NCBI GenBank assembly: GCA_964016885.1
Contig: OZ024743.1
Location: forward strand, 38,068,001 to 38,132,000
DNA: 64,000 nucleotides
Origin: Eledone cirrhosa
Taxonomy: Eukaryota
Direction: 5' to 3'
Below, in pieces: positions 25,778 to 61,304 of the stretch (its first letter is position 1; the number at the start of each line of letters is the position of its first letter). Made by a program: the position numbers and the translations under genes. The notes beneath the pieces are model-generated. The model saw only the letters and a program-made list of their open reading frames with translations, was not told where the DNA came from and searched no databases.

Positions 25778-25823
25778 CTAACAAAGTTCTTTCGTTGCAC
25801 ATCTGAAACATCATCAGTCGTAG
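25778..25823 (-). ncRNA. Partly decayed type I hammerhead
   Basis: CTGATGA-T-GTTTCA GATG TGCAAC-GAAAG AA CTT; stem I is imperfect. Confidence 0.5.
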
Positions 25824-32139: not shown

Positions 32140-33470
32140 TATTAATAACAAAAAACAAATCCTCCATTCCCATTATGCCAAACCCATGACTTCCAAATAT
32201 CTGATCCACCGAAACTCAGCTGTTTCGGACCATACCAAGATCAACATACTGATTGCGGATTTGATACGGGTGATGAGAAACGTGTCCCGCATGTGCAACC
32301 CCGAAGAACTGGAGAGACACATACAACACTTCATCCACCGTATGCAGTTCTCTGGTTACAATCAGAGAGATAAAATCAAAGTGTATAGAGGAGCCAGAAC
32401 CAAATGGTAAAAAAATGGTAAATAATGACACAAATGGGACTTGCCCCTTGTATAGGAGAAAATTTTGGAATAGAATAGAAAGAACTAGGAATAAGACTAA
32501 TAGAATAAACTCATGGTATGATAACAATAAATACCAGAGTGTAATGTTCATCGATACAACCCCTAGAGGTGAATTAGCTTACAAATTTAGAAGGGCCCTA
32601 GATAAACATAAACTCAATATTAAGAGAGTAGAAAGACCAGGTACCTCCTCCATAAAAACACTTATTTGCAAGACATACCCTTTTCAAAGACCTCCCTGTA
32701 TAGATAAGAAATGTATAATCTGTAAATTAAGCCCCCATATTAACTGTAAAACAAGAAATGTAGTATATAGCATAAGATGTACTGAAGGACAATGTAGAGA
32801 TAAAAATATAGTGTACATAGGTGAGACAGCTCGTAGTAGAGGGGAACGGATAAATGAACACTGGCGAGACCTTCAAGATAGTAAAGAATCATCTGTACTC
32901 TACCAACATGCTAAAATAGAACATAAGGGTAAATTAGAGAACATAGAAATAAAAATAGAATCTACACACAGAAAAGACGCAATGCTTAGACAAATCACAG
33001 AGGCAATAAACATAAATGAATTACAACCAAAATTAAATAGAAAACATGAGTGGAACAGCAACATCACAACTTACAATTAAGGACAAAGTGAAAACACACA
33101 CGCACATAGAACAAACAACCAACCAGTAACATGTAAATAAACAAATAAATAAACGAATATAAACACACACAGACACCCGGATGTAACACATGCGCAAACT
33201 AAGCACACAACACACACACACAAACAAGATGGCGTAGGACAGAACAAAGGAGAGGGATAAAAAACAAAGAAAAAAATCCCCAGTCACCAAAGAGGTCACA
33301 GAATGTGTGACGAAAGAACTTTGACAATATATAAACAACCATCTGGTTGTGGAACCAACCAACCGTAAATTTATAAATTCCTAAATTTATAAATTTATTA
33401 TAATAAATTGAAGTGAAAGCGAGTGGTGCGTGTGTTTCTTATTGGCAACATAACCCTCCCAAAGTATAAC
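32140..33470 (+). mobile_element. 5'-truncated Penelope-like element (RT thumb, Cys linker, GIY-YIG, 3' UTR)
   Basis: ORFs 32099-32410 and 32415-33080: HYAKPMTS..IHRNSA, CIDKKCIIC..CKTRNVVYSIRC..YIGETARS..ERINEH..ITEAINI..PKLN. One frame break. Confidence 0.9.
33283..33325 (+). ncRNA. Decayed hammerhead in the PLE 3' region
   Basis: GTCA-CCAAAGA-G-GTCAC AGAATGT GTGAC-GAAAG AA CTT-TGAC: stems I and II are intact but the CUGANGA box is mutated. Confidence 0.55.
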
Positions 33471-33489
33471 AATATATATATACATATAT

Positions 33490-33628
33490 ATAGGAAAAAG
33501 TATGAACCCGGTGGCAGAGCTCAATCCGTTTCGATGGGTATTTCTGGACTAGTCAATCTATTACCCTAAGTATTGAGTACTCTGCTGCGTCATAGTCCAT
33601 CTGGTTCTTTACCACATTTCCTTCGTTA
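33490..33628. mobile_element. Hairpin-plus-tail family copy lacking its second arm
   Basis: First arm and apex are joined directly to the tail. Confidence 0.8.
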
Positions 33629-34048
33629 TATATATATATATAGAGTTATGTAATAAACAACATAAGGTGATTATTTCATTTACCAATGGTTTCTTGAAAG
33701 CAAACACATTTTGCTTTCAATCATTATAATGAAAACATCCTGGTGTATTTATTGACATTGGATTTTAAAAACGAAAATATAATCTATATGAAAGTGAGGC
33801 TGGAAAAGGAAGAAGGAAAGGAAAAATAAACACACATGCACACCAACAAACACATATACCTACATACATATATATACATACACATATATATATACATATA
33901 TATATATATACACATACATACACACATACATACATGTACAAATACACATACATATACATATACATACATACACACATATATATCCACATATCCATACATA
34001 CACAAAAATACACAAACACACACACACACACATGTGCATATATATATA

Positions 34049-34138
<90 letters not shown>

Positions 34139-34642
34139 TAAACGGAATAGAAAATGCTGACAAATTGTTCACAGTTGAAAAATAGTTTAATTAGGAATAA
34201 AAGAGTATTAGTATTTGTATTGGTTAGTATTCAGTTGTGATTTTAAGTTTTTACCTGTTGCGCATTTCTAAATCGATTTCTAAATGCTTTTCAAAAATAA
34301 TTTTGAGATAGAGCGTCCGTGTTGGTTGCTCTGATCTGATTTGTTTTGGGATTTCTACCTGTTTTTATGTTAAAAAAGTGGCTCCAGCTCTACTTGGTGT
34401 TGCAAAAATTCTTGTGGTCAAAACAATTTTGATTGGTCGTTAGATGTCATGTTAATGTGAAATATTTATTTTGCGCCATGACTGAGAAATGACTCTTTCA
34501 CAACAAATATGTGTGTGTTTTTGTGTGTGTGTAGTAGTAGTAAAGTGTTCGATGTTGTGATAATGGTTACCAGGGATGTGTGTGCGAACCGCAGCCTGTT
34601 GACAGTTCAAATGGCTATTAAGATAAGTGTGTGTGTGTGTGT

Positions 34643-34689
<47 letters not shown>

Positions 34690-35217
34690 TATAGCAGAGT
34701 AATTCGTGGTAGCGGGATGGTCAGTATGAATGTGTCTGTAAGGAGTGGGTGGTATTTCAGCATGTCAAAAGATATTTTTCAGGTTTTGTCTTATACGGAG
34801 AAGTGTGTGTGTGTGTGTGTGTGTGTGTATAAGTCTCTTTGTATGTTAATGTACGCGTGTGTATGTGTGTGTGTGTGTGTATGTATATATATGTGTGTGT
34901 GTGTGTGTGCGTCAGAATGTGTGTGTGTGTGTGTGTGGGTGGACCAGTATTTTTTTCCCCTGGTAAAATGGTGTACATTATTCGATATTTTCAGTAAAAT
35001 CGATTCTCTCAATAGAACATCAAAAATCTTAACAATAAAAGGTGTGAAATGATATTCACCATATATATATATATACATATATTCACTATATATATATATA
35101 TATTTTGTGTTGTACCGTAGAACATGTGTGTTTACGTATGTCATTGTGTTTATATGTGGGTAGATATGTGTGCTGATGTAGGTATGTATGTTGACGTGTG
35201 TATGTTGTGGGTTCGTC

Positions 35218-35897
35218 TTAGGGAGAAGTGTTTAGACGGGGTCCGTATTTGTTAATAAAGTAAGATTCCTTGCTGATGCGCTAGGTGTGGGTGGCATTAT
35301 CTTTAAATTTGTAGAGGGAAAAGATTCTGAAGTTGGGATGATTTTGGGCGGCACAGGTATCAATGTGTTCACTCAGTGGTATTTTCCTGTATTCCCGTAT
35401 TTTGGGATCTATGGACAGTCATGCGTTGGCGGAGGCTGTATTTGGTCTGGCCTATGTATTGTTCTCGACAACCTGAGCAAGTTAATACATATATTAGATT
35501 TTCCGATGCACATGTAAAATTGTGTTTTACTATAAAACGTTGTCCTTCTTTGAAATAGAATTCCGAACCCTCTATTAGGTTGATGCAAATGCCACAGTTG
35601 TGTCTATCGCATTTTTCTACTTTGGGTTTCGTTGTTCTGATTGGTAGTACTTTGGCAGGTGTTAGGATGTTTTTCATTGACTTTGATTGTCTTTTGCTCT
35701 TTATGATATCGAGTGTTCGTAGGATTTGGTTCATTCTATGGTCCTTTTTCAATACGGGGATGTTCTGGAGGATGGTGTCAAAGGCCTCATTTTTGAGGGC
35801 GTTGTGTGTGGAGATGTATGGAAGAGCTTTTAGTTTCGGTTGATTTACTTTAGGGTGTCTAAGTTCCTGGGTACTGAGTTTTAGGGCACGTTGGATT
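35218..35897 (-). pseudogene. Penelope GIY-YIG endonuclease fragment, array unit 1 (repeated in all 5 units)
   Basis: CDRHNCGIC..NFTCASENLIYVLTCSGCREQYIGQTK..LRQRMTVHR; continues after a frameshift as EHIDTC..KESYFINKYGPRLN. Unit 2 has an extra TAA at 38044. Confidence 0.9.
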
Positions 35898-36644
35898 CTT
35901 ATTAACAATGTGGTTCAATGCATCGTGTTGAAGAACAATAATATGAGATACGTGATATTTTAGTAAGTAAGTTAATTTTATAATTTTCTTATTTTACGTC
36001 TCTCATATATTTGTTCTGCAACCCCATGCATTGAACCACATTGTTAATAAGACGAAACCTATATATTTGATAGCATTGATATGCATCTGTGTGTATATAA
36101 ATGTTACTAGATATAAATTCCTTATAATTATCTCCAATTCATTTGTCGAGCAATATTTGGCCATGACTGCTACTATGGTAGTAAGCTAGCCGCTGTCTTA
36201 ATAACCACTCGCTTTCCACTGATTGACCTCGATGTCACGTGATTGATTCTTTTTGAATTTGCCACGGACGTAGAGGCAGTGATTTTGTCAATGGCTTGGA
36301 ATCCAGTCCACGCATCGCTATTTCCATTCCACTGAATTATTTTTTTAATAAGTTTCCAGTGTCCTCGCTATGCCTGGAGACCTATACGGAAAAAGACTTT
36401 CCTGATGACGGAATGATTTTCCATAAGTTTCTTCGGAAAATATATTTACTCCATTCCAGAAACTAATTAGTTGGAAGTGATTTTTTAGTAAGTAAGTTAA
36501 TTTTATAATTTTCTTATTTTACGTCTCTCATATTATTGTTCTGCAACCCCATGCATTGAACCACATTGTTAATAAGACAAAACCTATATATTTGCTAGCA
36601 TTGATATGCATCTGTGTGTATATAGATGTTACTAGATATAAATT

Positions 36645-36650
<6 letters not shown>
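35898..36650 (+). mobile_element. Retrozyme-like non-coding element (525-bp monomer + ~165-bp direct repeat + ~55-bp inverted 5' stub), array unit 1
   Basis: Direct repeat at 35961 and 36486, inverted stub at 35898-35953, internal hammerhead; homolog at 61294-61901. Confidence 0.85.
36396..36478 (+). ncRNA. Type I hammerhead ribozyme, array unit 1
   Basis: ACTTTC-CTGATGA-C-GGAATG...CATTCC-A-GAAAC TAATTA GTT-GGAAGT: 6-bp stem I, extended stem II, palindromic stem III. Confidence 0.85.
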
Positions 36651-36685
<35 letters not shown>

Positions 36686-37343
36686 TAAACGGAATAGAAA
36701 ATGCTGACAAATTGTTCACAGTTGAAAAATAGTTTAATTAGGAATAAAAGAGTATTAGTATTTGTATTGGTTAGTATTCAGTTGTGATTTTAAGTTTTTA
36801 CCTGTTGCGCATTTCTAAATCGATTTCTAAATGCTTTTCAAAAATAATTTTGAGATAGAGCGTCCGTGTTGGTTGCTCTGATCTGATTTGTTTTGGGATT
36901 TCTACCTGTTTTTATGTTAAAAAAGTGGCTCCAGCTCTACTTGGTGTTGCAAAAATTCTTGTGGTCAAAACAATTTTGATTGGTCGTTAGATGTCATGTT
37001 AATGTGAAATATTTATTTTGCGCCATGACTGAGAAATGACTCTTTCACAACAAATATGTGTGTGTTTTTGTGTGTGTGTAGTAGTAGTAAAGTGTTCGAT
37101 GTTGTGATAATGGTTACCAGGGATGTGTGTGCGAACCGCAGCCTGTTGACAGTTCAAATGGCTATTAAGATAAGTGTGTGTGTGTGTGTGTGTATCTGTG
37201 TGTGTGTGTGTGTGTGCGCGTGTGTGTGTGTGTATAGCAGAGTAATTCGTGGTAGCGGGATGGTCAGTATGAATGTGTCTGTAAGGAGTGGGTGGTATTT
37301 CAGCATGTCAAAAGATATTTTTCAGGTTTTGTCTTATACGGAG

Positions 37344-37404
<61 letters not shown>

Positions 37405-38934
37405 AGTCTCTTTGTATGTTAATGTACGCGTGTGTATGTGTGTGTGTGTGTGTATGTATATATATGTGTGTGTGTGTGTGGGTGGACCAGTATTTTTTTC
37501 CCCTGGTAAAATGGTGTACATTATTCGATATTTTCAGTAAAATCGATTCTCTCAATAGAACATCAAAAATCTTAACAATAAAAGGTGTGAAATGATATTC
37601 ACCATATATATATACATATATTCACTATATATATATATATATATATTTTGTGTTGTACCATAGAACATGTGTGTTTACGTATGTCATTGTGTTTATATGT
37701 GGGTAGATATGTGTGCTGATGTAGGTATGTATGTTGACGTGTGTATGTTGTGGGTTCGTCTTAGGGAGAAGTGTTTAGACGGGGTCCGTATTTGTTAATA
37801 AAGTAAGATTCCTTGCTGATGCGCTAGGTGTGGGTGGCATTATCTTTAAATTTGTAGAGGGAAAAGATTCTGAAGTTGGGATGATTTTGGGCGGCACAGG
37901 TATCAATGTGTTCACTCAGTGGTATTTTCCTGTATTCCCGTATTTTGGGATCTATGGACAGTCATGCGTTGGCGGAGGCTGTATTTGGTCTGGCCTATGT
38001 ATTGTTCTCGACAACCTGAGCAAGTTAATACATATATTAGATTTTACGATGCACATGTGAAATTGTGTTTTACTATAAAACGTTGTCCTTCTTTGAAATA
38101 GAATTCCGAACCCTCTATTAGGTTGATGCAAATGCCACAGTTGTGTCTATCGCATTTTTCTACTTTGGGTTTCGTTGTTCTGATTGGTAGTACTTTGGCA
38201 GGTGTTAGGATGTTTTTCATTGACTTTGATTGTCTTTTGCTCTTTATGATATCGTGTGTTCGTAGGATTTGGTTCATTCTATGGTCCTTTTTCAATACGG
38301 GGATGTTCTGGAGGATGGTGTCAAAGGCCTCATTTTTGAGGGCGTTGTGTGTGGAGATGTATGGAAGAGCTTTTAGTTTCGGTTGATTTACTTTAGGGTG
38401 TCTAAGTTCCTGGGTACTGAGTTTTAGGGCACGTTGGATTCTTATTAACAATGTGGTTCAATGCATGGTGTTGAAGAACAATAATATGAGAGACGTGATT
38501 TTTTAGTAAGTTAATTTTATAATTTTCTTATTTTACGTCTCTCATATATTTGTTCTGCAACCCCATGCATTGAACCACATTGTTAATAAGACGAAACCTA
38601 TATATTTGATAGCATTGATATGCATCTGTGTGTATATAAATGTTACTAGATATAAATTCCTTATAATTATCTCCAATTCATTTGTCGAGCAATATTTGGC
38701 CATGACTGCTACTATGGTAGTAAGCTAGCCGCTGTCTTAATAACCACTCGCTTTCTACTGATTGACCTCGATGTCACGTGATTGATTCTTTTTGAATTTG
38801 CCACGGACGTAGAGGCAGTGATTTTGTCAATGGCTTGGAATCCAGTCCACGCATCGCTATTTCCATTCCACTGAATTATTTTTTTAATAAGTTTCCAGTG
38901 TCCTCGCTATGCCTGGAGACCTATACGGAAAAAG

Positions 38935-39017
38935 ACTTTCCTGATGACGGAATGATTTTCCATAAGTTTCTTCGGAAAATATATTTACTCCATTCCAGAA
39001 ACTAATTAGTTGGAAGT
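38935..39017 (+). ncRNA. Type I hammerhead, array unit 2
   Basis: Same sequence as unit 1. Confidence 0.85.
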
Positions 39018-39183
39018 GATTTTTTAGTAAGTAAGTTAATTTTATAATTTTCTTATTTTACGTCTCTCATATTATTGTTCTGCAACCCCATGCATTGAAC
39101 CACATTGTTAATAAGACAAAACCTATATATTTGCTAGCATTGATATGCATCTGTGTGTATATAGATGTTACTAGATATAAATT

Positions 39184-39246
<63 letters not shown>

Positions 39247-39902
39247 TAAACGGAATAGAAAATGCTGACAAATTGTTCACAGTTGAAAAATAGTTTAATT
39301 AGGAATAAAAGAGTATTAGTATTTGTATTGGTTAGTATTCAGTTGTGATTTTAAGTTTTTACCTGTTGCGCATTTCTAAATCGATTTCTAAATGCTTTTC
39401 AAAAATAATTTTGAGATAGAGCGTCCGTGTTGGTTGCTCTGATCTGATTTGTTTTGGGATTTCTACCTGTTTTTATGTTAAAAAAGTGGCTCCAGCTCTA
39501 CTTGGTGTTGCAAAAATTCTTGTGGTCAAAACAATTTTGATTGGTCGTTAGATGTCATGTTAATGTGAAATATTTATTTTGCGCCATGACTGAGAAATGA
39601 CTCTTTCACAACAAATATGTGTGTGTTTTTGTGTGTGTGTAGTAGTAGTAAAGTGTTCGATGTTGTGATAATGGTTACCAGGGATGTGTGTGCGAACCGC
39701 AGCCTGTTGACAGTTCAAATGGCTATTAAGATAAGTGTGTGTGTGTGTGTGTGTATGTGTGTGTGTGTGTGTGTGCGCGTGTGTGTGTGTGTATAGCAGA
39801 GTAATTCGTGGTAGCGGGATGGTCAGTATAAATGTGTCTGTAAGGAGTGGGTGGTATTTCAGCATGTCAAAAGATATTTTTCAGGTTTTGTCTTATACGG
39901 AG

Positions 39903-39937
<35 letters not shown>

Positions 39938-41501
39938 AGTCTCTTTGTATGTTAATGTACGCGTGTGTATGTGTGTGTGTGTGTGTATGTATATATATGT
40001 GTGTGTGTGTGTGTGCGTCAGAATGTGTGTGTGTGTGTGTGTGGGTGGACCAGTATTTTTTTCCCCTGGTAAAATGGTGTACATTATTCGATATTTTCAG
40101 TAAAATCGATTCTCTCAATAGAACATCAAAAATCTTAACAATAAAAGGTGTGAAATGATATTCACCATATATATATATATACATATATTCACTATATATA
40201 TATATATATTTTGTGTTGTACCATAGAACATGTGTGTTTACGTATGTCATTGTGTTTATATGTGGGTAGATATGTGTGCTGATGTAGGTATGTATGTTGA
40301 CGTGTGTATGTTGTGGGTTCGTCTTAGGGAGAAGTGTTTAGACGGGGTCCGTATTTGTTAATAAAGTAAGATTCCTTGCTGATGCGCTAGGTGTGGGTGG
40401 CATTATCTTTAAATTTGTAGAGGGAAAAGATTCTGAAGTTGGGATGATTTTGGGCGGCACAGGTATCAATGTGTTCACTCAGTGGTATTTTCCTGTATTC
40501 CCGTATTTTGGGATCTATGGACAGTCATGCGTTGGCGGAGGCTGTATTTGGTCTGGCCTATGTATTGTTCTCGACAACCTGAGCAAGTTAATACATATAT
40601 TAGATTTTCCGATGCACATGTGAAATTGTGTTTTACTATAAAACGTTGTCCTTCTTTGAAATAGAATTCCGAACCCTCTATTAGGTTGATGCAAATGACA
40701 CAGTTGTGTCTATCGCATTTTTCTACTTTGGGTTTCGTTGTTCTGATTGGTAGTACTTTGGCAGGTGTTAGGATGTTTTTCATTGACTTTGATTGTCTTT
40801 TGCTCTTTATGATATCGTGTGTTCGTAGGATTTGGTTCATTCTATGGTCCTTTTTCAATACGGGGATGTTCTGGAGGATGGTGTCAAAGGCCTCATTTTT
40901 GAGGGCGTTGTGTGTGGAGATGTATGGAAGAGCTTTTAGTTTCGGTTGATTTACTTTAGGGTGTCTAAGTTCCTGGGTACTGAGTTTTAGGGCACGTTGG
41001 ATTCTTATTAACAATGTGGTTCAATGCATCGTGTTGAAGAACAATAATATGAGATACGTGATTTTTTAGTAAGTAAGTTAATTTTATAATTTTCTTATTT
41101 TACGTCTCTCATATATTTGTTCTGCAACCCCATGCATTGAACCACATTGTTAATAAGACGAAACCTATATATTTGATAGCATTGATATGCATCTGTGTGT
41201 ATATAAATGTTACTAGATATAAATTCCTTATAATTATCTCCAATTCATTTGTCGAGCAATATTTGGCCATGACTGCTACTATGGTAGTAAGCTAGCCGCT
41301 GTCTTAATAACCACTCGCTTTCCACTGATTGACCTCGATGTCACGTGATTGATTCTTTTTGAATTTGCCACGGACGTAGAGGCAGTGATTTTGTCAATGG
41401 CTTGGAATCCAGTCCACGCATCGCTATTTCCATTCCACTGAATTATTTTTTTAATAAGTTTCCAGTGTCCTCGCTATGCCTGGAGACCTATACGGAAAAA
41501 G

Positions 41502-41584
41502 ACTTTCCTGATGACGGAATGATTTTCCATAAGTTTCTTCGGAAAATATATTTACTCCATTCCAGAAACTAATTAGTTGGAAGT
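41502..41584 (+). ncRNA. Type I hammerhead, array unit 3
   Basis: Same sequence as unit 1. Confidence 0.85.
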
Positions 41585-41750
41585 GATTTTTTAGTAAGTA
41601 AGTTAATTTTATAATTTTCTTATTTTACGTCTCTCATATTATTGTTCTGCAACCCCATGCATTGAACCACATTGTTAATAAGACAAAACCTATATATTTG
41701 CTAGCATTGATATGCATCTGTGTGTATATAGATGTTACTAGATATAAATT

Positions 41751-41813
<63 letters not shown>

Positions 41814-42471
41814 TAAACGGAATAGAAAATGCTGACAAATTGTTCACAGTTGAAAAATAGTTTAATTAGGAATAAAAGAGTATTAGTATTTGTATTGGTT
41901 AGTATTCAGTTGTGATTTTAAGTTTTTACCTGTTGCGCATTTCTAAATCGATTTCTAAATGCTTTTCAAAAATAATTTTGAGATAGAGCGTCCGTGTTGG
42001 TTGCTCTGATCTGATTTGTTTTGGGATTTCTACCTGTTTTTATGTTAAAAAAGTGGCTCCAGCTCTACTTGGTGTTGCAAAAATTCTTGTGGTCAAAACA
42101 ATTTTGATTGGTCGTTAGATGTCATGTTAATGTGAAATATTTATTTTGCGCCATGACTGAGAAATGACTCTTTCACAACAAATATGTGTGTGTTTTTGTG
42201 TGTGTGTAGTAGTAGTAAAGTGTTCGATGTTGTGATAATGGTTACCAGGGATGTGTGTGCGAACCGCAGCCTGTTGACAGTTCAAATGGCTATTAAGATA
42301 AGTGTGTGTGTGTGTGTGTGTATCTGTGTGTGTGTGTGTGTGTGCGCGTGTGTGTGTGTGTATAGCAGAGTAATTCGTGGTAGCGGGATGGTCAGTATGA
42401 ATGTGTCTGTAAGGAGTGGGTGGTATTTCAGCATGTCAAAAGATATTTTTCAGGTTTTGTCTTATACGGAG

Positions 42472-42540
<69 letters not shown>

Positions 42541-44072
42541 AGTCTCTTTGTATGTTAATGTACGCGTGTGTATGTGTGTGTGTGTGTGTATGTATATATA
42601 TGTGTGTGTGTGTGTGGGTGGACCAGTATTTTTTTCCCCTGGTAAAATGGTGTACATTATTCGATATTTTCAGTAAAATCGATTCTCTCAATAGAACATC
42701 AAAAATCTTAACAATAAAAGGTGTGAAATGATATTCACCATATATATATACATATATTCACTATATATATATATATATATTTTGTGTTGTACCATAGAAC
42801 ATGTGTGTTTACGTATGTCATGGTGTTTATATGTGGGTAGATATGTGTGCTGATGTAGGTATGTATGTTGACGTGTGTATGTTGTGGGTTCGTCTTAGGG
42901 AGAAGTGTTTAGACGGGGTCCGTATTTGTTAATAAAGTAAGATTCCTTGCTGATGCGCTAGGTGTGGGTGGCATTATCTTTAAATTTGTAGAGGGAAAAG
43001 ATTCTGAAGTTGGGATGATTTTGGGCGGCACAGGTATCAATGTGTTCACTCAGTGGTATTTTCCTGTATTCCCGTATTTTGGGATCTATGGACAGTCATG
43101 CGTTGGCGGAGGCTGTATTTGGTCTGGCCTATGTATTGTTCTCGACAACCTGAGCAAGTTAATACATATATTAGATTTTCCGATGCACATGTGAAATTGT
43201 GTTTTACTATAAAACGTTGTCCTTCTTTGAAATAGAATTCCGAACCCTCTATTAGGTTGATGCAAATGCCACAGTTGTGTCTATCGCATTTTTCTACTTT
43301 GGGTTTCGTTGTTCTGATTGGTAGTACTTTGGCAGGTGTTAGGATGTTTTTCATTGACTTTGATTGTCTTTTGCTCTTTATGATATCGTGTGTTCGTAGG
43401 ATTTGGTTCATTCTATGGTCCTTTTTCAATACGGGGATGTTCTGGAGGATGGTGTCAAAGGCCTCATTTTTGAGGGCGTTGTGTGTGGAGATGTATGGAA
43501 GAGCTTTTAGTTTCGGTTGATTTACTTTAGGGTGTCTAAGTTCCTGGGTACTGAGTTTTAGGGCACGTTGGATTCTTATTAACAATGTGGTTCAATGCAT
43601 CGTGTTGAAGAACAATAATATGAGATACGTGATTTTTTAGTAAGTAAGTTAATTTTATAATTTTCTTATTTTACGTCTCTCATATATTTGTTCTGCAACC
43701 CCATGCATTGAACCACATTGTTAATAAGACGAAACCTATATATTTGATAGCATTGATATGCATCTGTGTGTATATAAATGTTACTAGATATAAATTCCTT
43801 ATAATTATCTCCAATTCATTTGTCGAGCAATATTTGGCCATGACTGCTACTATGGTAGTAAGCTAGCCGCTGTCTTAATAACCACTCGCTTTCCACTGAT
43901 TGACCTCGATGTCACGTGATTGATTCTTTTTGAATTTGCCACGGACGTAGAGGCAGTGATTTTGTCAATGGCTTGGAATCCAGTCCACGCATCGCTATTT
44001 CCATTCCACTGAATTATTTTTTTAATAAGTTTCCAGTGTCCTCGCTATGCCTGGAGACCTATACGGAAAAAG

Positions 44073-44155
44073 ACTTTCCTGATGACGGAATGATTTTCCA
44101 TAAGTTTCTTCGGAAAATATATTTACTCCATTCCAGAAACTAATTAGTTGGAAGT
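44073..44155 (+). ncRNA. Type I hammerhead, array unit 4
   Basis: Same sequence as unit 1. Confidence 0.85.
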
Positions 44156-44321
44156 GATTTTTTAGTAAGTAAGTTAATTTTATAATTATCTTATTTTACG
44201 TCTCTCATATTATTGTTCTGCAACCCCATGCATTGAACCACATTATTAATAAGACAAAACCTATATATTTGCTAGCATTGATATGCATCTGTGTGTATAT
44301 AGATGTTACTAGATATAAATT

Positions 44322-44386
<65 letters not shown>

Positions 44387-45043
44387 TAAACGGAATAGAA
44401 AATGCTGACAAATTGTTCACAGTTGAAAAATAGTTTAATTAGGAATAAAAGAGTATTAGTATTTGTATTGGTTAGTATTCAGTTGTGATTTTAAGTTTTT
44501 ACCTGTTGCGCATTTCTAAATCGATTTCTAAATGCTTTTCAAAAATAATTTTGAGATAGAGCGTCCGTGTTGGTTGCTCTGATCTGATTTGTTTTGGGAT
44601 TTCTACCTGTTTTTATGTTAAAAAAGTGGCTCCAGCTCTACTTGGTGTTGCAAAAATTCTTGTGGTCAAAACAATTTTGATTGGTCGTTAGATGTCATGT
44701 TAATGTGAAATATTTATTTTGCGCCATGACTGAGAAATGACTCTTTCACAACAAATATGTGTGTGTTTTTGTGTGTGTGTAGTAGTAGTAAAGTGTTCGA
44801 TGTTGTGATAATGGTTACCAGGGATGTGTGTGCGAACCGCAGCCTGTTGACAGTTCAAATGGCTATTAAGATAAGTGTGTGTGTGTGTGTGTATCTGTGT
44901 GTGTGTGTGTGTGTGCGCGTGTGTGTGTGTGTATAGCAGAGTAATTCGTGGTAGCGGGATGGTCAGTATGAATGTGTCTGTAAGGAGTGGGTGGTATTTC
45001 AGCATGTCAAAAGATATTTTTTCAGGTTTTGTCTTATACGGAG

Positions 45044-45084
<41 letters not shown>

Positions 45085-46606
45085 AGTCTCTTTGTATGTT
45101 AATGTACGCGTGTGTATGTGTGTGTATGTATATATATGTGTGTGTGTGTGTGGGTGGACCAGTATTTTTTTCCCCTGGTAAAATGGTGTACATTATTCGA
45201 TATTTTCAGTAAAATCGATTCTCAATAGAACATCAAAAATCTTAACAATAAAAGGTGTGAAATGATATTCACCATATATATATACATATATTCACTATAT
45301 ATATATATATATATTTTGTGTTGTACCATAGAACATGTGTGTTTACGTATGTCATTGTGTTTATATGTGGGTAGATATGTGTGCTGATGTAGGTATGTAT
45401 GTTGACGTGTGTATGTTGTGGGTTCGTCTTAGGGAGAAGTGTTTAGACGGGGTCCGTATTTGTTAATAAAGTAAGATTCCTTGCTGATGCGCTAGGTGTG
45501 GGTGGCATTATCTTTAAATTTGTAGAGGGAAAAGATTCTGAAGTTGGGATGATTTTGGGCGGCACAGGTATCAATGTGTTCACCCAGTGGTATTTTCCTG
45601 TATTCCCGTATTTTGGGATCTATGGACAGTCATGCGTTGGCGGAGGCTGTATTTGGTCTGGCCTATGTATTGTTCTCGACAACCTGAGCAAGTTAATACA
45701 TATATTAGATTTTCCGATGCACATGTGAAATTGTGTTTTACTATAAAACGTTGTCCTTCTTTGAAATAGAATTCCGAACCCTCTATTAGGTTGATGCAAA
45801 TGCCACAGTTGTGTCTATCGCATTTTTCTACTTTGGGTTTCGTTGTTCTAATTGGTAGTACTTTGGCAGGTGTTAGGATGTTTTTCATTGACTTTGATTG
45901 TCTTTTGCTCTTTATGATATCGTGTGTTCGTAGGATTTGGTTCATTCTATGGTCCTTTTTCAATACGGGGATGTTCTGGAGGATGGTGTCAAAGGCCTCA
46001 TTTTTGAGGGCGTTGTGTGTGGAGATGCATGGAAGAGCTTTTAGTTTCGGTTGATTTACTTTAGGGTGTCTAAGTTCCTGGGTACTGAGTTTTAGGGCAC
46101 GTTGGATTCTTATTAACAATGTGGTTCAATGCATGGTGTTGAAGAACAATAATATGAGAGACGTGATTTTTTAGTAAGTAAGTTAATTTTATAATTTTCT
46201 TATTTTACGTCTCTCATATATTTGTTCTGCAACCCCATGCATTGAACCACATTGTTAATAAGACGAAACCTATATATTTGATAGCATTGATATGCATCTG
46301 TGTGTATATAAATGTTACTAGATATAAATTCCTTATAATTATCTCCAATTCATTTGTCGAGCAATATTTGGCCATGACTGCTACTATGGTAGTAAGCTAG
46401 CCGCTGTCTTAATAACCACTCGCTTTCTACTGATTGACCTCGATGTCACGTGATTGATTCTTTTTGAATTTGCCACGGACGTAGAGGCAGTGATTTTGTC
46501 AATGGCTTGGAATCCAGTCCACGCATCGCTATTTCCATTCCACTGAATTATTTTTTTAATAAGTTTCCAGTGTCCTCGCTATGCCTGGAGACCTATACGG
46601 AAAAAG

Positions 46607-46689
46607 ACTTTCCTGATGACGGAATGATTTTCCATATGTTTCTTCGGAAAATATATTTACTCCATTCCAGAAACTAATTAGTTGGAAGT
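46607..46689 (+). ncRNA. Type I hammerhead, array unit 5
   Basis: Same as unit 1 except one loop SNP. Confidence 0.85.
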
Positions 46690-46855
46690 GATTTTTTAGT
46701 AAGTAAGTTAATTTTATAATTTTCTTATTTTACGTCTCTCATATATTTGTTCTGCAACCCCATGCATTGAACCACATTGTTAATAAGACAAAACCTATAT
46801 ATTTGCTAGCATTGATATGCATCTGTGTGTATATAGATGTTACTAGATATAAATT

Positions 46856-46927
<72 letters not shown>

Positions 46928-47290
46928 ACACACATACTCATACACATATTCACACGTACATACGCACACATACATACACACATATATACACGCATACATA
47001 GGCACACACAAATATAGATATGTGTACACACACCTACATACGCACACACACCTACATACGCACACACACAAAAATATAATAGACGACCATATAGGCCGTC
47101 AGATAAGAATAAAAATAAATGTAAACATTTTTATAAAGTTGACAGCGATACAGGAAACAAATAAATGAACAAACCCACGTGGTAAGCAATACACACAATT
47201 ACACATACACATACATACATATAAATAAATATATACACACACATACACATACATATGCGCATACATATACATACACATATACATACACAT

Positions 47291-47324
<34 letters not shown>

Positions 47325-48084
47325 ATATATTGAAGAGTTAAACAAAATTCAACGAGTACGTCAAATAATGAGTTTTACAGTAGATTGGAAGCACTCTACA
47401 ATAAAAAAAAAATTTCCGGAGTTATTAATATTAGAATATAAATATTAATAAAATACATGTTCCTTCGATTAATCACACTTCATTATACACATTTTGGATG
47501 TACAACAGTACGCCCTCATAAGACAAAATATAATGATACATGACACACTCTGAGATGTTAAATGGTTAAGATTCAATGAAGGCCGTGATTAATCTAAGAG
47601 AAAATTTAACATTTACACCCCAATAATGAGAAAATGCGAAAACGTAACAAATTCATTAGAGAATATGTGAGTAAGAAAAACGTTGCCCAATGTACCAGTT
47701 ATCGAGACTCTAATATGTATGATACTACAATTTATCTAGGAAAGCATTTCATGAATTATAACAGTCAGTGTGAGAGTGGGGGAAAGATTAGGGGGACAAT
47801 GTTACTACGAAACGTTCAAGAGAGTAGTAGCGGTTGGTGCCCTTAACCGCACTGACGGAGTGTGCCTGCAATGTGGAATCTAATTGAAGCCCTAGATGAC
47901 CACGCAGGTATCAATGAATCTATTTAAACTGTATTATGTAAGTGACCAAACATCTTTGGCAATGCAGTGTTGACAAGCAAACAGAGTAGGAAAAAAACCT
48001 ACTGATCTAATATATCATATGGCAAGTGATTAAATATTATTTTATATTTGTTCGCCTATATAAATCAATACACATGAATATACA

Positions 48085-49669: not shown

Positions 49670-52600
49670 CACTTTGACCGACCAGTCTGTCGGGCGTCCA
49701 TTCGGCGCCGCTGGACTCAGCACGCCGTCCATTCCTCTCTGGATCGTGCTTTCCTCATCCATGTAGTCCCAATCGTATTCTTAAAATCGTAACTCCACCT
49801 TCGTGGAGGCCTTCCGAATGGTCGTTTCCGCTCGCGCGGGTACCACTCGGCAACTGCGCGAGTCCACCGATTATCGGTGAACCGGGCGACGTGTCCAGCC
49901 CATCTGAACTTGCTGCGCATATACTCCGAGATGACGTCCCTCACGCAGGACTTCTGTCTGATGACTTCGCTCCCGATGTGCTCTCTCAACGAGGTTCCTA
50001 GCATTGATCTCTCCATGGCTCTTTGAGCCGTTACCAGCCTCTGCTCTTCTCTCTTCGTTGTAGCCAAAGTTTCCCTGCCATATAACATTGCAGGTAAAAC
50101 TGTGCTATTGAAGAGGTTGGCGCTGGTGGTTTTGTCCAACCTCCCCTTGAGCACATCCCTTATGCCGTCGAACGCCTTTCATCCGGCCCTTACTCTCCGC
50201 GAGATCTCCTTCTCAATATCTCGGCGCATGTTCACCTCTTATCCCAGGTAGACGTATTCCTCCACCTCCTCTATTTCATCACCGCCAACCACCATTCGAC
50301 ATGTTGGTATGTTGTCGGACCACATGAACTTCGTTTTCATGCGGTTCATCTTGAGGCCTACTGCAGTGCTTTTGATGTCGAACTCCGTCAGCATGGTCTG
50401 AAGCTGATCCGTGGTTTCATCGATGAGTACGATGTCATCAGCGAAACGGAGGTGGGTAAGTATCTCACCTCTGATGTCGACACCGCCTTGCCAGTCAATG
50501 CTTCTGATGAAAAGTTTTAGAGAGATCGTATCTTCTTGCTTCACTCCCTTCTCCACCAGCACTCGTACGGGTGATGACAGCAGAGCTATGTCGGTGATAC
50601 ATCCGGAACTCGCCTTCATGAGCAGTTGAACGTATTGCGCCTCGACTCCTTGCATCTGCAGCGAGTTCAGAACTGCGTTGATTTCGACGCTGTCGAAGGC
50701 CTTCTCGTAGTCTACGAACGCGACGCAAAGAGGCATCTTGTATTCTTTTGCTCGCTCAAGCAGTTATGTCAGAGTAAATATGTGGTCCATCGTGCTGTAG
50801 TTTTTCCGGAAGCCGGTTTGCTCTCTCGGTTGCTGTTCGTTCAGATGACGTGATAACCTGTTCAGGATTATCTTCGTGAACAGCTTTTACACGTGCGACA
50901 GCAGGCATATGGGTCAGTAGTTCTTCAGCAATTCTCTATCGCCCTTCTTGTATAGCATGATGGTATTCGACTCTTCCACTGCGAGGGTATTCTAACCTCG
51001 TCCAGATAGTGTGTGAATCGCTCGGCGAGGATTTTCCAGAGCTGCTCTCCGCCTGACTTCAACACCTCCGATGTTATGCCGTCTTTCCCTGGCGCCTTTC
51101 GGCTTTTCATCAAGCCGACGGCTCTTTCGACCTCCCCGACAAGGATGCGTGGACGTTTTCTTCCTGTTGGAGTGAAGGCAACAGCTGCACATTCCAGGCA
51201 GACCTGAAGAGCTTGGTGTAGAAGTCTTCGCAAACCTTTTCCACCTCACTCTTGTCGCTGACCGGTACTCCAGCTGTGTTTTTCAGGGTCGTCAACTCCG
51301 ATCTGTACATTGTCATGTCCCTCTCGCATTTCTTGACGCTCTTCTTTTCCTTTGCTGCCTTCACAAGCTTCTCCACCCGGTATGCCTCGAAGTCTCTCTT
51401 CAGTTGTTTACATATCACTCTGCTGGGAAGGAAATATTCGAGGTGATCTTCAGGTGTCCACTTCATATTTTCCCTCTTCTCAAGCAATTTCATAGTTTCC
51501 TCCAAGACTCTTCCCTTCCGCTCCCTCAGGCACACACCCTTAGCCTTCTTCAAGCACTCCTTCAGTTTCCTTATCAGTGACTCGTAGTCAGCGTCTATGC
51601 CGTCTCCTTGACGCCACCTTTCCTGCATAATGGCTTCCTGCAGCTGTGCCTCGTTGAAGACCCGGACGCGTTCTCCCTTCGATGCCGAATGGAGTACCTT
51701 CTTCTTCCTCGTCCGGTCGATGGCGATTCTCGCCCTCACCAGACGATGATCATTTCCAGTGTTGAATGGCGTTATGACGGAGACGTCCTGCAGTATGCGT
51801 CGCTTGTCGACCAAGATGTAGTCAATCTCGTTTCCGTGCTCAGAATTTGGCGATACCCAGGTCCATCTCTTCTCCTTCTTCCTGAATAGGCTGTTTCCGA
51901 TGTAGAACCGTCTCGCCTCCGCCATGGTGACCAGACGCTCTCCTCTCTCATTCCGCTCTCCTAGGCCGAATCTTCCGACATACTCTTCCCCTTGGCGTCC
52001 CTGTCCGACCTTTGCGTTGAAGTCTCCCATCACGACGGTGTAAGTGGACTTCACAGCTAGCACTTTGTCTAGCTGGCGATAGAATTCTTCCACGCCATCT
52101 TCGTCGCTGGCACTTGTGGGAGCGTAGGTCTGGACGATCTTGAGGGTGGCTTTCCCTGAGAGTTTCACGCTCAGTACACCAATCCGTGACGATATGACTG
52201 GCAGGAAGCGACCTTCGTAGCCCATTCCTTGCTTACAATGAACCCTATACCTCCGACCGAACTGGCACCCTGTGCTTTCCCGAGTCTCAAGGCGCATTCA
52301 CCTTGCCATCGCGAACTCGTATCCCTCTTCTGGTAGGTCTCACGTGACACCTGCTCGTCTTCTCCTCCATTAGGTGGTTCAGTCCTTGACCCCTGCCAAA
52401 GACCTGCAGTTGTAGGTGCATATGGCAAGTTTAGTCCTGTTCCTTGGCGGCCTTCGGGAACCTGTGATTCGTAGCAGCCTCTCGTCGTTCGGGTTGCACT
52501 CCGCCGTCGTGGAGTGGCCCGATTGACACGCAGGGTACCGAGGCCCTTTTCTTCGTGCTGTTTTAACCATAAGATGACGCCATCTCACTGGCTGGGCGGG

Positions 52601-54684: not shown

Positions 54685-56360
54685 TGTATATATATATATA
54701 TATTTATTTAGTCTCACGTGTGTGCATATATATATATATATATATATACAGACATGTAATGATATTGTCAACGTGGTCAGATGATTTACTTGAATTAGAA
54801 GATACGTCATTTATTCAAACATTTACCTATTAATAATATCTTAAGATCTTTGTTCATTGATATACAGGTTATACCCACTGAATAGATGGTTTACGCTGTG
54901 TGGCTGATGCTCAAGTTATGCTCCATCTCTTGTGATCACAGGTTCAACACTAGAAACACACATATCTAACATACACAACAAAAGTATTATGATATAGCAT
55001 TTAGAGTAAATAAACCGAACATAGTGTACCCATTACATCTGAAAACTCGACTTTGTCTGATACATCAAGCGGCTTGAAACAACATTTCTGCTGATATATG
55101 TCTACAATGTTGTGAGCAAAATAGTTAGGTACTCTTCAAATGTAGTAATATTAAGAAGCAACAAAATAATTGTTAGTTTTTGTAAAAAGAATCGTTTTCT
55201 TTTTATTCAATTTATTGTTCTGTTATTTTCCCACAATTAGTGGTTCAACAGATTTTCACATCATTAATATTCACCATCTTGAAAGCTTGTTATATTAGAA
55301 TCTACTAAATACCAATTCAGTTGCTTGAAAATGTTTGCTTTCTTCATACAATAAAGTTTGCCTAGGTTGTTAAACTATACTCAATCAATAGCTAATTCAT
55401 ATAATTATCTGCATTTTATACAAATCTTCAATGCTTCCTTTTGAAATAATATGTACTTATTTATTTAATGTTTATCTGTTTTACTTTTATACAGTACTCA
55501 AATAAAAAAAAAACAATAAAATATGTGGAACAAGAGGGAGAAAAATCAGTGCAGTATGTATATGGACTACATGATTTGTTGAAATGTTACTTTAGCTGTA
55601 TTTTGCTTCTCAGAATGTACATTTTACTTAGTCTTTCATGCTAAAATCACTATCTACGTGTTTCATCTATCTCATAGCATCTGTGTTGAGTCTAATGAAG
55701 CAATTATTGTGTACTGGTAAGATGCAATGCAGAGGTTTATTCTCTATAATCTGGAATTCAGAACGTAGATATTCTATGCATTTTACCACTAATAGACAAC
55801 TGAGAAGAAAGTATATCACAAACAAAACAGAATTTACATTGCTGCTTGAAGTTTTTCTTTTATTGTTTTTATTATCCTATCAGAGTTTCAGTCTTGCTTA
55901 TGGTTTGTTTTCCTTTACTAATCAACCGTTCCTGTTATATATCAAACCTTCGCACTAGGATTCAAATTAAACTGTAAAAAGCAAATGCTGAAAATGATTA
56001 CGCATAACACACAGACGAAATAAATTCATATCTTTTATATTAAGTGAAAGATTTTCCACCAGTTTCAATGAACGTTTGGTTGATCTATCAACTGAAGGAC
56101 TTACACATTAATGTTAACGTGGTTGTCGGCTGTTTTTCACAAACCCACGTTTTATTTAACGTCATTGTCTGGGAGATTCAGAACGACATAGTCTGCCACA
56201 TTGTTGGACATTTAAATTAGAGGTATAATCGAACAGAAGGGTTTGAAAATATATTCGTCTACTATATTTCGCAAATGAATATTATATTTGCGATGTTATG
56301 CCTGCGCCCACACCTAGACACACATACATACATACACACACACGCATACAGCACACACAA

Positions 56361-56930
<570 letters not shown>

Positions 56931-57078
56931 AATTAACTCCGTACTCGCACCACCAACTACACAAACAAAGACGGGTGAGTTGCATTACGTTGAGTGCTCT
57001 CCATATTATTACATCGAGGTTGCCCACACGGAATGACCAGTTCTATCCGGTAGTGAACCAACAAACAGAAATAAATAA

Positions 57079-57136
<58 letters not shown>

Positions 57137-57144
<8 letters not shown>

Positions 57145-60100: not shown

Positions 60101-61116
60101 ATTGTAGTATTTGTTTACAGTCCATTCCTATTTCCGTATAAGGCGCTGTTTATCATATTTGACTCTGGTGTGGTAACACTGATCGATAGCTTTGCGTATT
60201 TCCTGGACCTGGTGGTCAGGGGTGAGGGTTGGAGCTATACGATCTATGTGCTCGGAAAGCGTTTGTATATGGAGTCGCAGTTGGTGGTGGTTGTGTCGTA
60301 GTATTTTCTTGATAAACGTGCGTTGAATGTGGCGGATTGTGTTTTCGAAGGATGGTGATCGTAAACATTCGGGTAGATGTATATTCCTGATGGTAGTTGG
60401 AATGATGTTGTTCTTTAGGCAGCGTTTTAAGAAGGTAATTTGGCAACCGAGTTTGGCACGATTCTCCGATAGTCTGAATAGGTCCCTTATGGGTGCAAAC
60501 AAGTCCTGGCTCAGGTGTAATGATAAGAGGGTGTTAAAGTTTGCTTGAAGCATTGTGAAATGTGTAAAATACGTAGTTAAGAAAGCCACAACAATGCAGA
60601 GGGAAATCTCGAGGTAGGAAGTGAATGATAGATAGGAGAAACAGGAGAAAGTGAAAATTGGGAGAGACAAAGATGAAAACAAAACAAAGGTAGAAGGGTT
60701 ACCGTAGTGGAGATTTAATCCCAATATTTCGGGCTCACGCCCATCAACGGGGGAAAGTTCCAAAAGGGGGGGAACAGGCCAAGCGGAGAAAGTTGTGATG
60801 TCGTTAAGACAGGAATGCCGTTATGGGGAGGAAATTATTTAAAATTTAAACGAGGGAAAGAATGCGCGTGCGCGTGATAGGCTGTGGCAAAAGCTACTGA
60901 CCAAATGGGTTAAATCAAGAGGGTGCGCTAGCGTGTGAAAGCCGTAAAATATGTGTGTGTAAATATATATGTGTGTGTAACTGTGTGTGTATAAGTGTAA
61001 GTGTGTATATGTGTGATTGTGTGTGTGTGTGAAAGATAGTGGGCTGTAGAAGCTGGAAATCAAAGGGTGTGAAAGGTGGTAGGTTGTAAAACATGTGTGC
61101 GTGTATAAATATAGAT
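57137..61116 (-). mobile_element. Near-full-length Penelope-like retroelement with tandem pseudo-LTRs
   Basis: ~550-bp direct repeats at 57137-57689 and 60565-61116 flank an RT/GIY-YIG ORF; the 3' end runs into (TA)n. Confidence 0.95.
57931..60553 (-). pseudogene. PLE polyprotein (N-term, RT, Cys linker, GIY-YIG) with one TAG and one frameshift
   Basis: Starts MLQANFNTLL; TAG at 60128; LRLGPKF; frameshift near 59630; then PSDKG, KTHK..IRPIVS, SLDVVALYTSV, GLPMGSSLS, RYVDD, VVYKIQC..FYIGST..RIKEH. Confidence 0.92.
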
Positions 61117-61236
61117 AACGATAAATTGGAATAGAATGAAACGAAATTTCATTTCTCACTCTTAGTACGGCACTTACTTAAATGTAATTATGTATGTATA
61201 CGTACATACATATATATATACAGACGTACAGTAGCA

Positions 61237-61293
<57 letters not shown>

Positions 61294-61304
<11 letters not shown>

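Follow-up and report, generated by a model that had tools for sequence, protein, structure and literature searches.

We examined a 64-kb stretch of the Eledone cirrhosa genome (assembly GCA_964016885.1, contig OZ024743.1, positions 38,068,001 to 38,132,000, forward strand), referred to here as the window, with positions counted from its first letter. Five tandem units of ~2.5 kb lie head-to-tail at window positions 34135-46862, forming an array of 12.7 kb, and the window as a whole contains no N. Each unit joins part of a Penelope-like element (PLE) to a shorter non-coding element that carries a hammerhead ribozyme (HHR) motif, and it is bordered by simple TA repeats. The units and the array boundaries, as identified with Tandem Repeats Finder (TRF) and by comparison between units, are as follows.

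33864-34135: (AT)n microsatellite, left array boundary (TRF, period 2, 136 copies)
34135-36651: unit 1, type A, 2517 bp (anchors and tails; 7 of 2511 aligned bases differ from unit 3)
36682-39190: unit 2, type B, 2509 bp (differing at 7 of 2507 bases from unit 4, 7 of 2475 from unit 5, and 52 of 2501 from unit 1)
39243-41757: unit 3, type A, 2515 bp (unit comparison)
41810-44328: unit 4, type B, 2519 bp (unit comparison)
44383-46862: unit 5, type B, 2480 bp (unit comparison)
46859-46928: (TA)n, (TA)35, right array boundary (TRF)

Unit limits were set by sequence anchors and tails. The direct-repeat families found in 33000-48000 have five copies each at 97-100% identity, with start-to-start spacings of either 2547, 2561, 2567, and 2573 bp or 2543, 2563, 2571, and 2534 bp, and the microsatellites inside the array repeat with the same period as the units (TRF). 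An earlier interpretation made from the letters alone, here called the sequence-only reading, had described five units with hammerheads 2534-2571 bp apart. This description holds, as the hammerheads are spaced by 2539, 2567, 2571, and 2534 bp. Units 1 to 5 are followed by (TA)n runs of 30, 52, 52, 54, and 58 bp, respectively. At the left boundary, the (AT)n sits within a larger TG/TA-rich compound microsatellite that begins near 33760, and to the right of the boundary (TA)n there are ACAT/ACAC-type microsatellites up to ~47329.

Macrosatellites are tandem arrays of kilobase-scale repeats whose copy number rises and falls through unequal exchange. If a macrosatellite is taken as a head-to-tail repeat with a unit of at least ~1 kb, the five units of 2480-2519 bp place the array in this class, and the higher-order variant pattern and signs of inter-unit exchange described below are further likenesses. 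Unlike macrosatellites, the array has a low copy number and a unit that is a recent transposon mosaic flanked by microsatellites.

Within each unit, the left 1.76 kb is the 3′ part of a PLE, termed PLE-A, on the minus strand, and the right 0.7 kb consists of 1.3 units of a 525-bp element with the hammerhead on the plus strand. The two parts are joined head-to-head via a short inverted stub, and both 3′ ends enter (TA)n. In contigs from four sequencing runs, all parts of the unit are high-copy repeats in one organism, and some parts are also present in two others. The components of unit 1 and the five hammerheads are listed here; the bit scores come from a covariance model of our own, introduced below.

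34136-35898, minus strand: PLE-A fragment of unit 1, 5′-truncated (one-piece alignment to full copies)
35899-35951, minus strand: inverted stub of the 525-bp element in unit 1, 53 nt, approximately monomer positions 50-108 (sequence comparison)
35952-36651, plus strand: copy of the 525-bp element in unit 1, 1.33 units (internal 525-bp direct repeat, family D2, and genome matches)
36388-36484, plus strand: hammerhead of unit 1, predicted cut after 36472 (93.4 bits, E 5e-19)
38927-39023, plus strand: hammerhead of unit 2, predicted cut after 39011
41494-41590, plus strand: hammerhead of unit 3, predicted cut after 41578
44065-44161, plus strand: hammerhead of unit 4, predicted cut after 44149
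46599-46695, plus strand: hammerhead of unit 5, predicted cut after 46683 (95.8 bits)

The hammerhead core CTGATGA...GAAA occurs once per unit in the same orientation, on the plus strand at 36402, 38941, 41508, 44079, and 46613. A loose pattern for this core has 12 matches in the window compared to 2.68 expected from shuffles, and five of them are the plus-strand matches in the array. All five units contain CUGAUGA, GAAA, and GUU. Units 1-4 have identical 116-nt hammerhead regions; that of unit 5 carries a single substitution in distal helix II, an A to T change that restores one pair and leaves one non-standard pair fewer than in units 1-4. Helix I is formed by ACTTTC pairing with GGAAGT, while helix II (GGAAUG/CAUUCC) encloses ~44 nt and has a distal arm capped by cUUCGg. 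There is an extra C between CUGAUGA and helix II, and an extra A between helix II and GAAA. In DNA letters, helix III is the perfect palindrome ACTAATTAGT with T next to it, which as RNA is the 10-nt palindrome ACUAAUUAGU; the U directly after the palindrome yields the triplet GUU, from which the cut after 36472 is predicted. Each array unit carries one structurally intact, well-supported hammerhead motif with a palindromic helix III. The sequence-only reading had likewise claimed an intact ribozyme core in each unit and had pointed to hammerheads with a palindromic stem III, and the core, the GUU, the palindrome, and the family covariation agree with it.

To place these motifs in their family, we used the pattern CTGATGACGH-N(38-60)-AGAAACTAATTAGTT, which fixes the core, helix III, the extra C, and the extra A and leaves helices I and II free. 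It has 4081 + 3469 (7,550) exact matches in the 3.0-Gb genome, and the same pattern with G for H has 491 + 353 (844); the reversed control gave 0 in both cases. The genome total is 8,394 intact motifs sharing the core of the array hammerheads. As helix III is fixed by the search pattern and never varies, it gives no information on the fold. All 26 distinct sequences from the fetched loci were then aligned and their hammerhead pairs counted. Standard pairs fill 93.6% of the 546 cells, and sliding the 3′ partners by 1-3 columns lowers this to 33-46%; column shuffles were 83.3% paired, and 0 of 500 attained the observed value. Eight of the 21 pairs are altered on both sides, with pair 25-75 seen as UA, CG, GC, and AU. 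Helix I is 96.2% paired and proximal helix II 99.4%, with two double-sided pair changes each, and distal helix II is 84.1% paired with four such pairs. The motifs form subfamilies with covarying helices I and II, and we regard this covariation as decisive support for the hammerhead fold as a real structure in the family.

The first source of compensatory changes was a hammerhead elsewhere in the window, outside the array:

61358-61455, minus strand: diverged hammerhead relative of the GCAATG/CATTGC subfamily (own covariance model, 118.9 bits)

The sequence at 61348-61451 (minus strand) is 75% identical over 106 nt to the array hammerhead and has the same core, flanking C and A, and helix III. 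Helix II is changed from GGAATG/CATTCC to GCAATG/CATTGC, two helix I pairs are changed on both sides, and the distal arm is replaced by a different 7-bp stem. Our covariance model, built from the 26 sequences with the array hammerheads in its seed, gives six strong matches in the window, namely the five array copies and 61358-61455 (minus strand), and one weak match at 55995-56093 (plus strand; 17.7 bits, E 0.15) that is probably chance or a decayed copy. The diverged hammerhead lies within a sister-element copy at 61300-61800 (minus strand) that ends ...TTTTACGTCTTTTATAT and is followed by a long (TA)n (~61230-61300); its 3′ end is of the same kind as monomer position 61 of the 525-bp family in the array.

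The closest described relatives are the type I hammerheads of PLEs, namely the "min-HHR" class and variants with a small palindromic helix III (Cervera & de la Pena 2014, PMC4209133). These share with the array hammerheads the CUGAUGA...GAAA core and an NUH site (here GUU), an extra nucleotide between A9 and helix II, on the 5′ side of that helix, a long helix II exceeding the canonical 4 bp, a short helix I (5-6 bp), and a helix III whose palindrome favors dimer formation. The family likeness extends to copy numbers in the thousands per genome, to consensus families that show compensatory changes, and to pairs on opposite strands a few hundred bp apart, dual PLE hammerheads being found on opposite strands at 100-700 bp (PMC4209133). 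The array hammerheads differ in that helix II comprises ~50 nt, with a cUUCGg-capped distal arm in the array subfamily, in the extra A before G12, which in effect makes a C.A pair beside the core, in the full 10-nt helix III palindrome, invariant in 26 of 26 sequences, and in having no Rfam match.

We next consider the element that carries the ribozyme. Using 36250-36490 as a probe, there were 2065 first-look candidates in the genome, and the 40 that were scored gave 48 matches, mostly 97-100% identical over the matched part. These lie on many contigs, often as inverted pairs 750-850 bp apart or as tandems 521-525 bp apart. Seven other hammerhead loci (five distinct places) match only ~38492-39208 of unit 2, and since only this portion recurs elsewhere, the ribozyme-bearing repeat is a 525-bp non-coding element. 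Genome-wide, it occurs as monomers, dimers, short tandems (521-525 bp spacing), and inverted pairs, with copies up to 1139 bp colinear with the tandem reference. Its frames, listed by length rather than by comparison with a protein library, are of 41-78 aa only. The plus copy in unit 1 begins at the fifth nucleotide past the predicted cleavage site of the preceding repeat and stops at monomer position 179, adjoining (TA)n. In form, the 525-bp element is retrozyme-like: its short unit is non-coding, has a single type I hammerhead, and occurs in head-to-tail tandems. Animal retrozymes have consensus lengths of 51-972 bp and are considered non-autonomous PLE derivatives (Li, Clavereau & Pollet 2026, bioRxiv 10.64898/2026.07.22.740005). 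Like the animal non-LTR (long terminal repeat) retrozymes of that study, the element is non-coding, has one type I hammerhead per unit, and falls within the size range. It is longer than the 170-400 nt circular RNAs of Cervera & de la Pena 2020 (PMC7229834).

Insertion behavior was examined in a family sample of 30 loci with a 44-mer (519 exact genomic matches) plus five earlier loci, from which five overlapping ones were dropped. The mapped set consists of 50 copies in 30 loci, placed on the tandem reference. Of the 49 usable 3′ ends, 24 are at monomer position 61 and 21 at position 179, making 45 in all, and TA-rich sequence follows 42 of these 45. Head-to-head pairs (minus, then plus) number 18 and occur in 16 of the 30 loci. 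The 5′ ends are scattered, yet 11 of 50 fall within 28 nt of the ribozyme site (binomial 5e-5). This enrichment is a hint and no proof of cleavage, owing to palindrome-centered junctions, ambiguous BLAST ends, and biased sampling, as the 44-mer lies just past the cleavage site and favored copies with the first 53 nt. Across the mapped copies, the 525-bp family shows a Penelope-like insertion signature of 5′ truncation, head-to-head pairs, two discrete 3′ ends, and (TA)n targets. We also observed, at L074, L075, L084, and L067, head-to-head pairs in which both copies end in the helix III palindrome, at monomer positions 513-515 (BLAST). As both copies end within the palindrome, the inversion point is the center of ACTAATTAGT, and reverse transcription may switch strands at the helix III palindrome.

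PLEs are known for strong 5′ truncation, abutting inverted 5′-truncated copies, (TA)n targets, and hammerheads in terminal repeats or pLTRs (pseudo-LTRs), and those with an endonuclease (EN+) occur almost exclusively in animals (Craig et al. 2021, PMC8557442). No autonomous partner of the 525-bp element emerged from the searches: the element has no BLAST similarity to four, nor to 13, PLE-A loci; tblastn with three PLE proteins against 67 hammerhead loci found only chance neighbors in opposite or tail-to-tail orientation; and none of the loci sampled holds an autonomous PLE carrying this hammerhead.

The other component of the unit, the PLE-A fragment, is a truncated copy of a PLE of autonomous type. 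It comprises the C-terminal ~180 aa of the open reading frame (ORF), with a CX4CX2C linker and a broken GIY-YIG domain, and a 3′ untranslated region of ~1.1 kb with (GT)n; its 3′ end adjoins (AT)n. It is 85.7% identical over 1882 nt to L027 and 87.1% over 1873 nt to L030. A relative at L028:4538-6880(-) has a 780-aa open frame with reverse transcriptase (RT), then a C-terminal GIY-YIG, with the CX4CX2C linker, and it scores 27.1 bits for RVT_1 (just under the Pfam cut-off of 29.6) and 28.1 bits for GIY-YIG (over the cut-off of 22.6). Homology to relatives of this type identifies PLE-A as a canonical EN+ PLE, with RT, Cys-rich linker, and C-terminal GIY-YIG. The ORF at 35369-35914 in the window scores 18.7 bits for GIY-YIG, under the cut-off. 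Relative to the open-frame L028 copy, all five units have a common 5-bp deletion and a common in-frame stop in GIY-YIG, confirming the claim of the sequence-only reading that a frameshift shared by all units had killed the protein before amplification. The deletion is also visible in the comparison with the contigs of the four sequencing runs. The fragment is also without the entire RT, so the copy in the window was already dead apart from the frameshift. The same reading placed the ribozyme strand antisense to the PLE endonuclease, which is correct: the hammerheads are on the plus strand and the PLE-A remnant on the minus strand.

PLE-A resembles canonical EN+ PLEs (PMC8557442) in having RT plus a C-terminal GIY-YIG, the CX4CX2C linker, strong 5′ truncation, and alternative 3′ ends at internal sites. 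At the PLE-A 3′ ends (L022, L027/L018, L030), we observed that some copies pass ...TTTACCA-ATATAT into the same AATAACTTGTGTGTTACA, while other copies, that of the window included, stop at ...ACCA and then continue as (AT)n. Judging from these copies, the 3′ end of PLE-A, like that of the 525-bp element, can fall at two or more alternative TA-rich sites. Initiation of reverse transcription at two adjacent internal sites has been described by Frangieh et al. (PMC11167929). Unlike canonical EN+ PLEs, PLE-A has no canonical hammerhead core in copies at four loci; the search was for CTGANGA(6-90)GAAA, which is absent inside the PLE-A body at those loci and in the window fragment, and variant cores were not searched.

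How the two elements came to be joined is addressed by the junction between PLE-A and the stub, which in units 2-5 lies at ~38441, 41004, 43575, and 46109. The stub joins the PLE-A truncation point with ≤2 nt of microhomology. With a 501-nt probe spanning this junction, there were 2294 first-look candidates, and among the 40 that were scored only the five array units match over its whole length. The other scored matches that start from probe base 1 end at probe position 339-350, where ordinary PLE-A copies continue into their own ORF, and one shorter match ends at 199. These matches, up to position 350, had hinted at a 12-nt microhomology, which the direct comparison does not sustain. In restriction-site-associated DNA (RAD-seq) reads of X11 and X12, the sequence beyond 35898 is in all cases that of ordinary PLE-A. 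At ≥97%, 35902-35931 is covered by no contig of X1 or X2, and this lack of cover is not informative either way. The 525-bp element is in none of 13 PLE-A loci (nine distinct places), and the PLE-A protein finds only one relative in the 67 hammerhead loci, at 35-39% identity and on the opposite strand. With the junction confined to the five array units among the matches scored, the 2.55-kb unit does not appear to be mobile itself. Together with the start of the plus copy, the stub (as left arm) forms a long hairpin at 35897-36055 (-75.3 kcal/mol, z -15), which explains sub-threshold "MIR6027" matches; the sub-threshold Rfam miRNA matches in the window (MIR6027, mir-297, and others) were rejected as genes, as they correspond to the junction hairpin and microsatellites.

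These data bear on the proposal of the sequence-only reading that the 2.55-kb unit is a very large retrozyme, with unit-length RNA cut by the hammerheads and circularized, and on the extension that rolling-circle reverse transcription of this RNA built the array. In its favor, every unit has one structurally supported hammerhead, the five hammerheads share one orientation, animal retrozymes are organized as hammerhead-bearing tandem repeats (PMC7229834), and PLE-type reverse transcription yields tandems (PMC4209133). The proposal nonetheless fared poorly, and we judge it very unlikely. A retrozyme repeat unit is a mobile unit that recurs elsewhere, and the 2.55-kb unit does not recur among the scored matches: unlike in animal retrozymes, its defining junction is unique to the array, and its two halves are never neighbors in the 13 PLE-A or 67 hammerhead loci. 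The repeat that actually carries the ribozyme is 525 bp. An antisense PLE fragment without a role in such a cycle makes up two thirds of the unit, and the DNA-level pattern of A-B-A-B-B variants with unequal (TA)n spacers is unlike one rolling-circle copy of a single RNA.

Instead, the unit matches known EN+ PLE insertions (PMC8557442), where an inverted 5′-truncated copy abuts head-to-head and the target is (TA)n, and by this comparison its architecture is ordinary for PLE-type elements. It differs from them in joining two unlike elements head-to-head, PLE-A and the 525-bp element, and in that the whole structure has been amplified five-fold at the DNA level. From the junction data, we infer a one-off mosaic, arising either through one complex insertion with a template switch or through closely nested insertions into one (TA)n.

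The record of amplification is found in the differences between units. Variants follow the order A-B-A-B-B, with 7-12 differences within a type and 46-55 between types; most of the latter fall in (GT)n tracts that are misaligned. At 35924 and 35949, both in the stub, units 2 and 5 group against 1, 3, and 4, a mosaic pattern that fits exchange between repeats. The A-B-A-B-B order and the five complete units bounded by unequal (TA)n point to repeated unequal exchange or slippage, with some conversion. The same differences bear on whether the array could be an assembly artefact, in which a single mosaic insertion or another repeat structure was mis-assembled into five units. Every part of the unit is a high-copy repeat, and PLE tandem and inverted structures are known to trouble assemblies (PMC8557442). 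The units are non-identical, with ordered substitutions, indels, and (TA)n and (GT)n lengths, which is not what artefactual duplication of one copy would give, and the 12.7-kb array lies within N-free sequence; we therefore hold such an artefact to be highly improbable.

Taken together, we consider it probable that the array is a five-fold mosaic of a truncated PLE and the 525-bp hammerhead element, likely multiplied by unequal DNA exchange between (TA)n tracts, with the ribozyme likely a passenger. The mosaic would have arisen by insertion into a (TA)n microsatellite, either in one complex PLE-type event or in closely nested ones. A single unit would then have duplicated, its two copies diverging slightly into types A and B, after which the A-B block and then B again would have duplicated to give A-B-A-B-B, with some inter-unit exchange. 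The ribozyme would be a passenger that cuts RNA only if the plus strand is transcribed.

Several points weigh against this interpretation or parts of it. The Rfam hammerhead models give no match at the gathering score in the window, at E ≤10 in 14 kb (33500-47500), or at E ≤10 in a 131-nt sequence, and the minimum-energy fold of the single hammerhead sequence is not the hammerhead fold (z -0.74). Beside helix II, the extra C and extra A amount to a C.A pair where canonical ribozymes have G10.1-C11.1; a G-C pair near the core is present in 25 of 26 sequences, set off from the core by the extra C on the 5′ side and the extra A on the 3′ side. The conservation of these two bases is not independent of the genome pattern, which fixed both, and no description of an extra A before G12 was found in the available portion of PMC4209133. 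According to the same source, PLE-type minimal hammerheads cut poorly in vitro, so the activity of the array hammerheads is only an assumption. The covariation reflects selection on the fold of the family and does not establish activity of the five array copies. At the junction, the stub and the adjacent plus copy differ at ~4 of 55 positions, compared to <1% between units, so the two arms were probably not copied from one RNA molecule, and a single complex insertion is not distinguished from closely nested ones. Finally, unequal exchange is deduced from the variant pattern.

Under the mosaic interpretation, a plus-strand read-through transcript would contain one hammerhead per 2.55 kb. Helix III has 3 bp as a monomer hairpin and 10 bp as a dimer; with the 3-bp monomer helix, a cut after GUU would need a second hammerhead, either 2.55 kb away or in trans. 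Partners in trans could be supplied by transcripts of the thousands of copies sharing the same palindrome. The predicted products are ~2.55-kb RNAs antisense to the PLE-A remnant, each with a hairpin with 60-bp arms.

Such transcripts might be used by the host, with plus-strand RNA feeding piRNA (PIWI-interacting RNA) or siRNA (small interfering RNA) silencing of the PLE family and the hammerheads trimming the precursor. Tandem transposon fragments in mixed orientation and a stable hairpin such as that at the junction (-75.3 kcal/mol, z -15) suit such pathways, and the PLE family opposed by the plus strand of the array has at least 2,294 first-look matches in the genome. We nevertheless find this role quite unlikely: the locus is not distinct from the other head-to-head pairs, seen in 16 of 30 sampled loci, and the array is young (<1% divergence outside microsatellites), so it bears no sign of conservation. 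It is also unlikely, if slightly less so, that the unit is the footprint of a single retrotransposition, in which the RT of the hammerhead-less PLE-A jumped from its own RNA to that of the 525-bp element, and that the array is a tandem source of antisense RNA against PLE-A, delimited by hammerheads and bearing the hairpin. If true, the template jump would be direct genomic evidence of a retrozyme-like family mobilized by, and parasitizing, a ribozyme-less PLE.

Other elements were also observed in the window. Another PLE lies at 57931-60127 (minus strand), with frames of 589 aa and 177 aa, a YVDD-type RT motif, and a GIY-YIG-like C-terminus; its identity to PLE-A is only 23%. A direct repeat flanks it at 60128-60820 and 57043-57393; this repeat translates as RHSCLNDITTFSAWPVPPLLELSPVDGREPEILG..., is also found in L028, and may be the terminal repeat of that PLE. 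Just upstream of the array, at 32277-33080 (plus strand), is the C-terminal part of a third PLE type, with the GIY-YIG motif NVVYSIRCTEG...YIGETARS and a close relative at L028:1552-3075. A compact hammerhead-like motif, consisting of CTGA(T/C)GA, T, a 6-bp stem, a GATG loop, and GAAA, is present at 25790-25817 (minus strand) and at L028:3337-3364 (plus strand), in the latter case downstream of the third PLE type, ~260 bp from its ORF. The motif includes the extra base after A9 and resembles the "min-HHR" class (PMC4209133). Finally, the GC-rich stretch at 50-52 kb is explained by a LINE-like (long interspersed nuclear element) element at 50239-52297 (minus strand), with a 395-aa frame whose N-terminal part is endonuclease-like and an RT fragment of 174 aa.

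What appeared to be a giant ribozyme macrosatellite resolves into ordinary parts, namely a piece of a PLE, an element resembling a retrozyme, and duplication mediated by (TA)n. As regards annotation, ~8,400 intact hammerheads in this genome share one architecture, in which helix II is very long and has extra bases on either side, and the helix III palindrome does not vary; in scans of the window, Rfam models miss this architecture and our own covariance model detects it. For PLE biology, the locus and its family provide clean cases of two discrete TA-rich 3′ ends, head-to-head pairs that are often palindrome-centered, and one chimeric junction with an autonomous PLE. Current views are unchanged, as the findings fit animal retrozymes as non-autonomous PLE derivatives, and the single chimeric junction could bear on which PLE mobilizes such elements.

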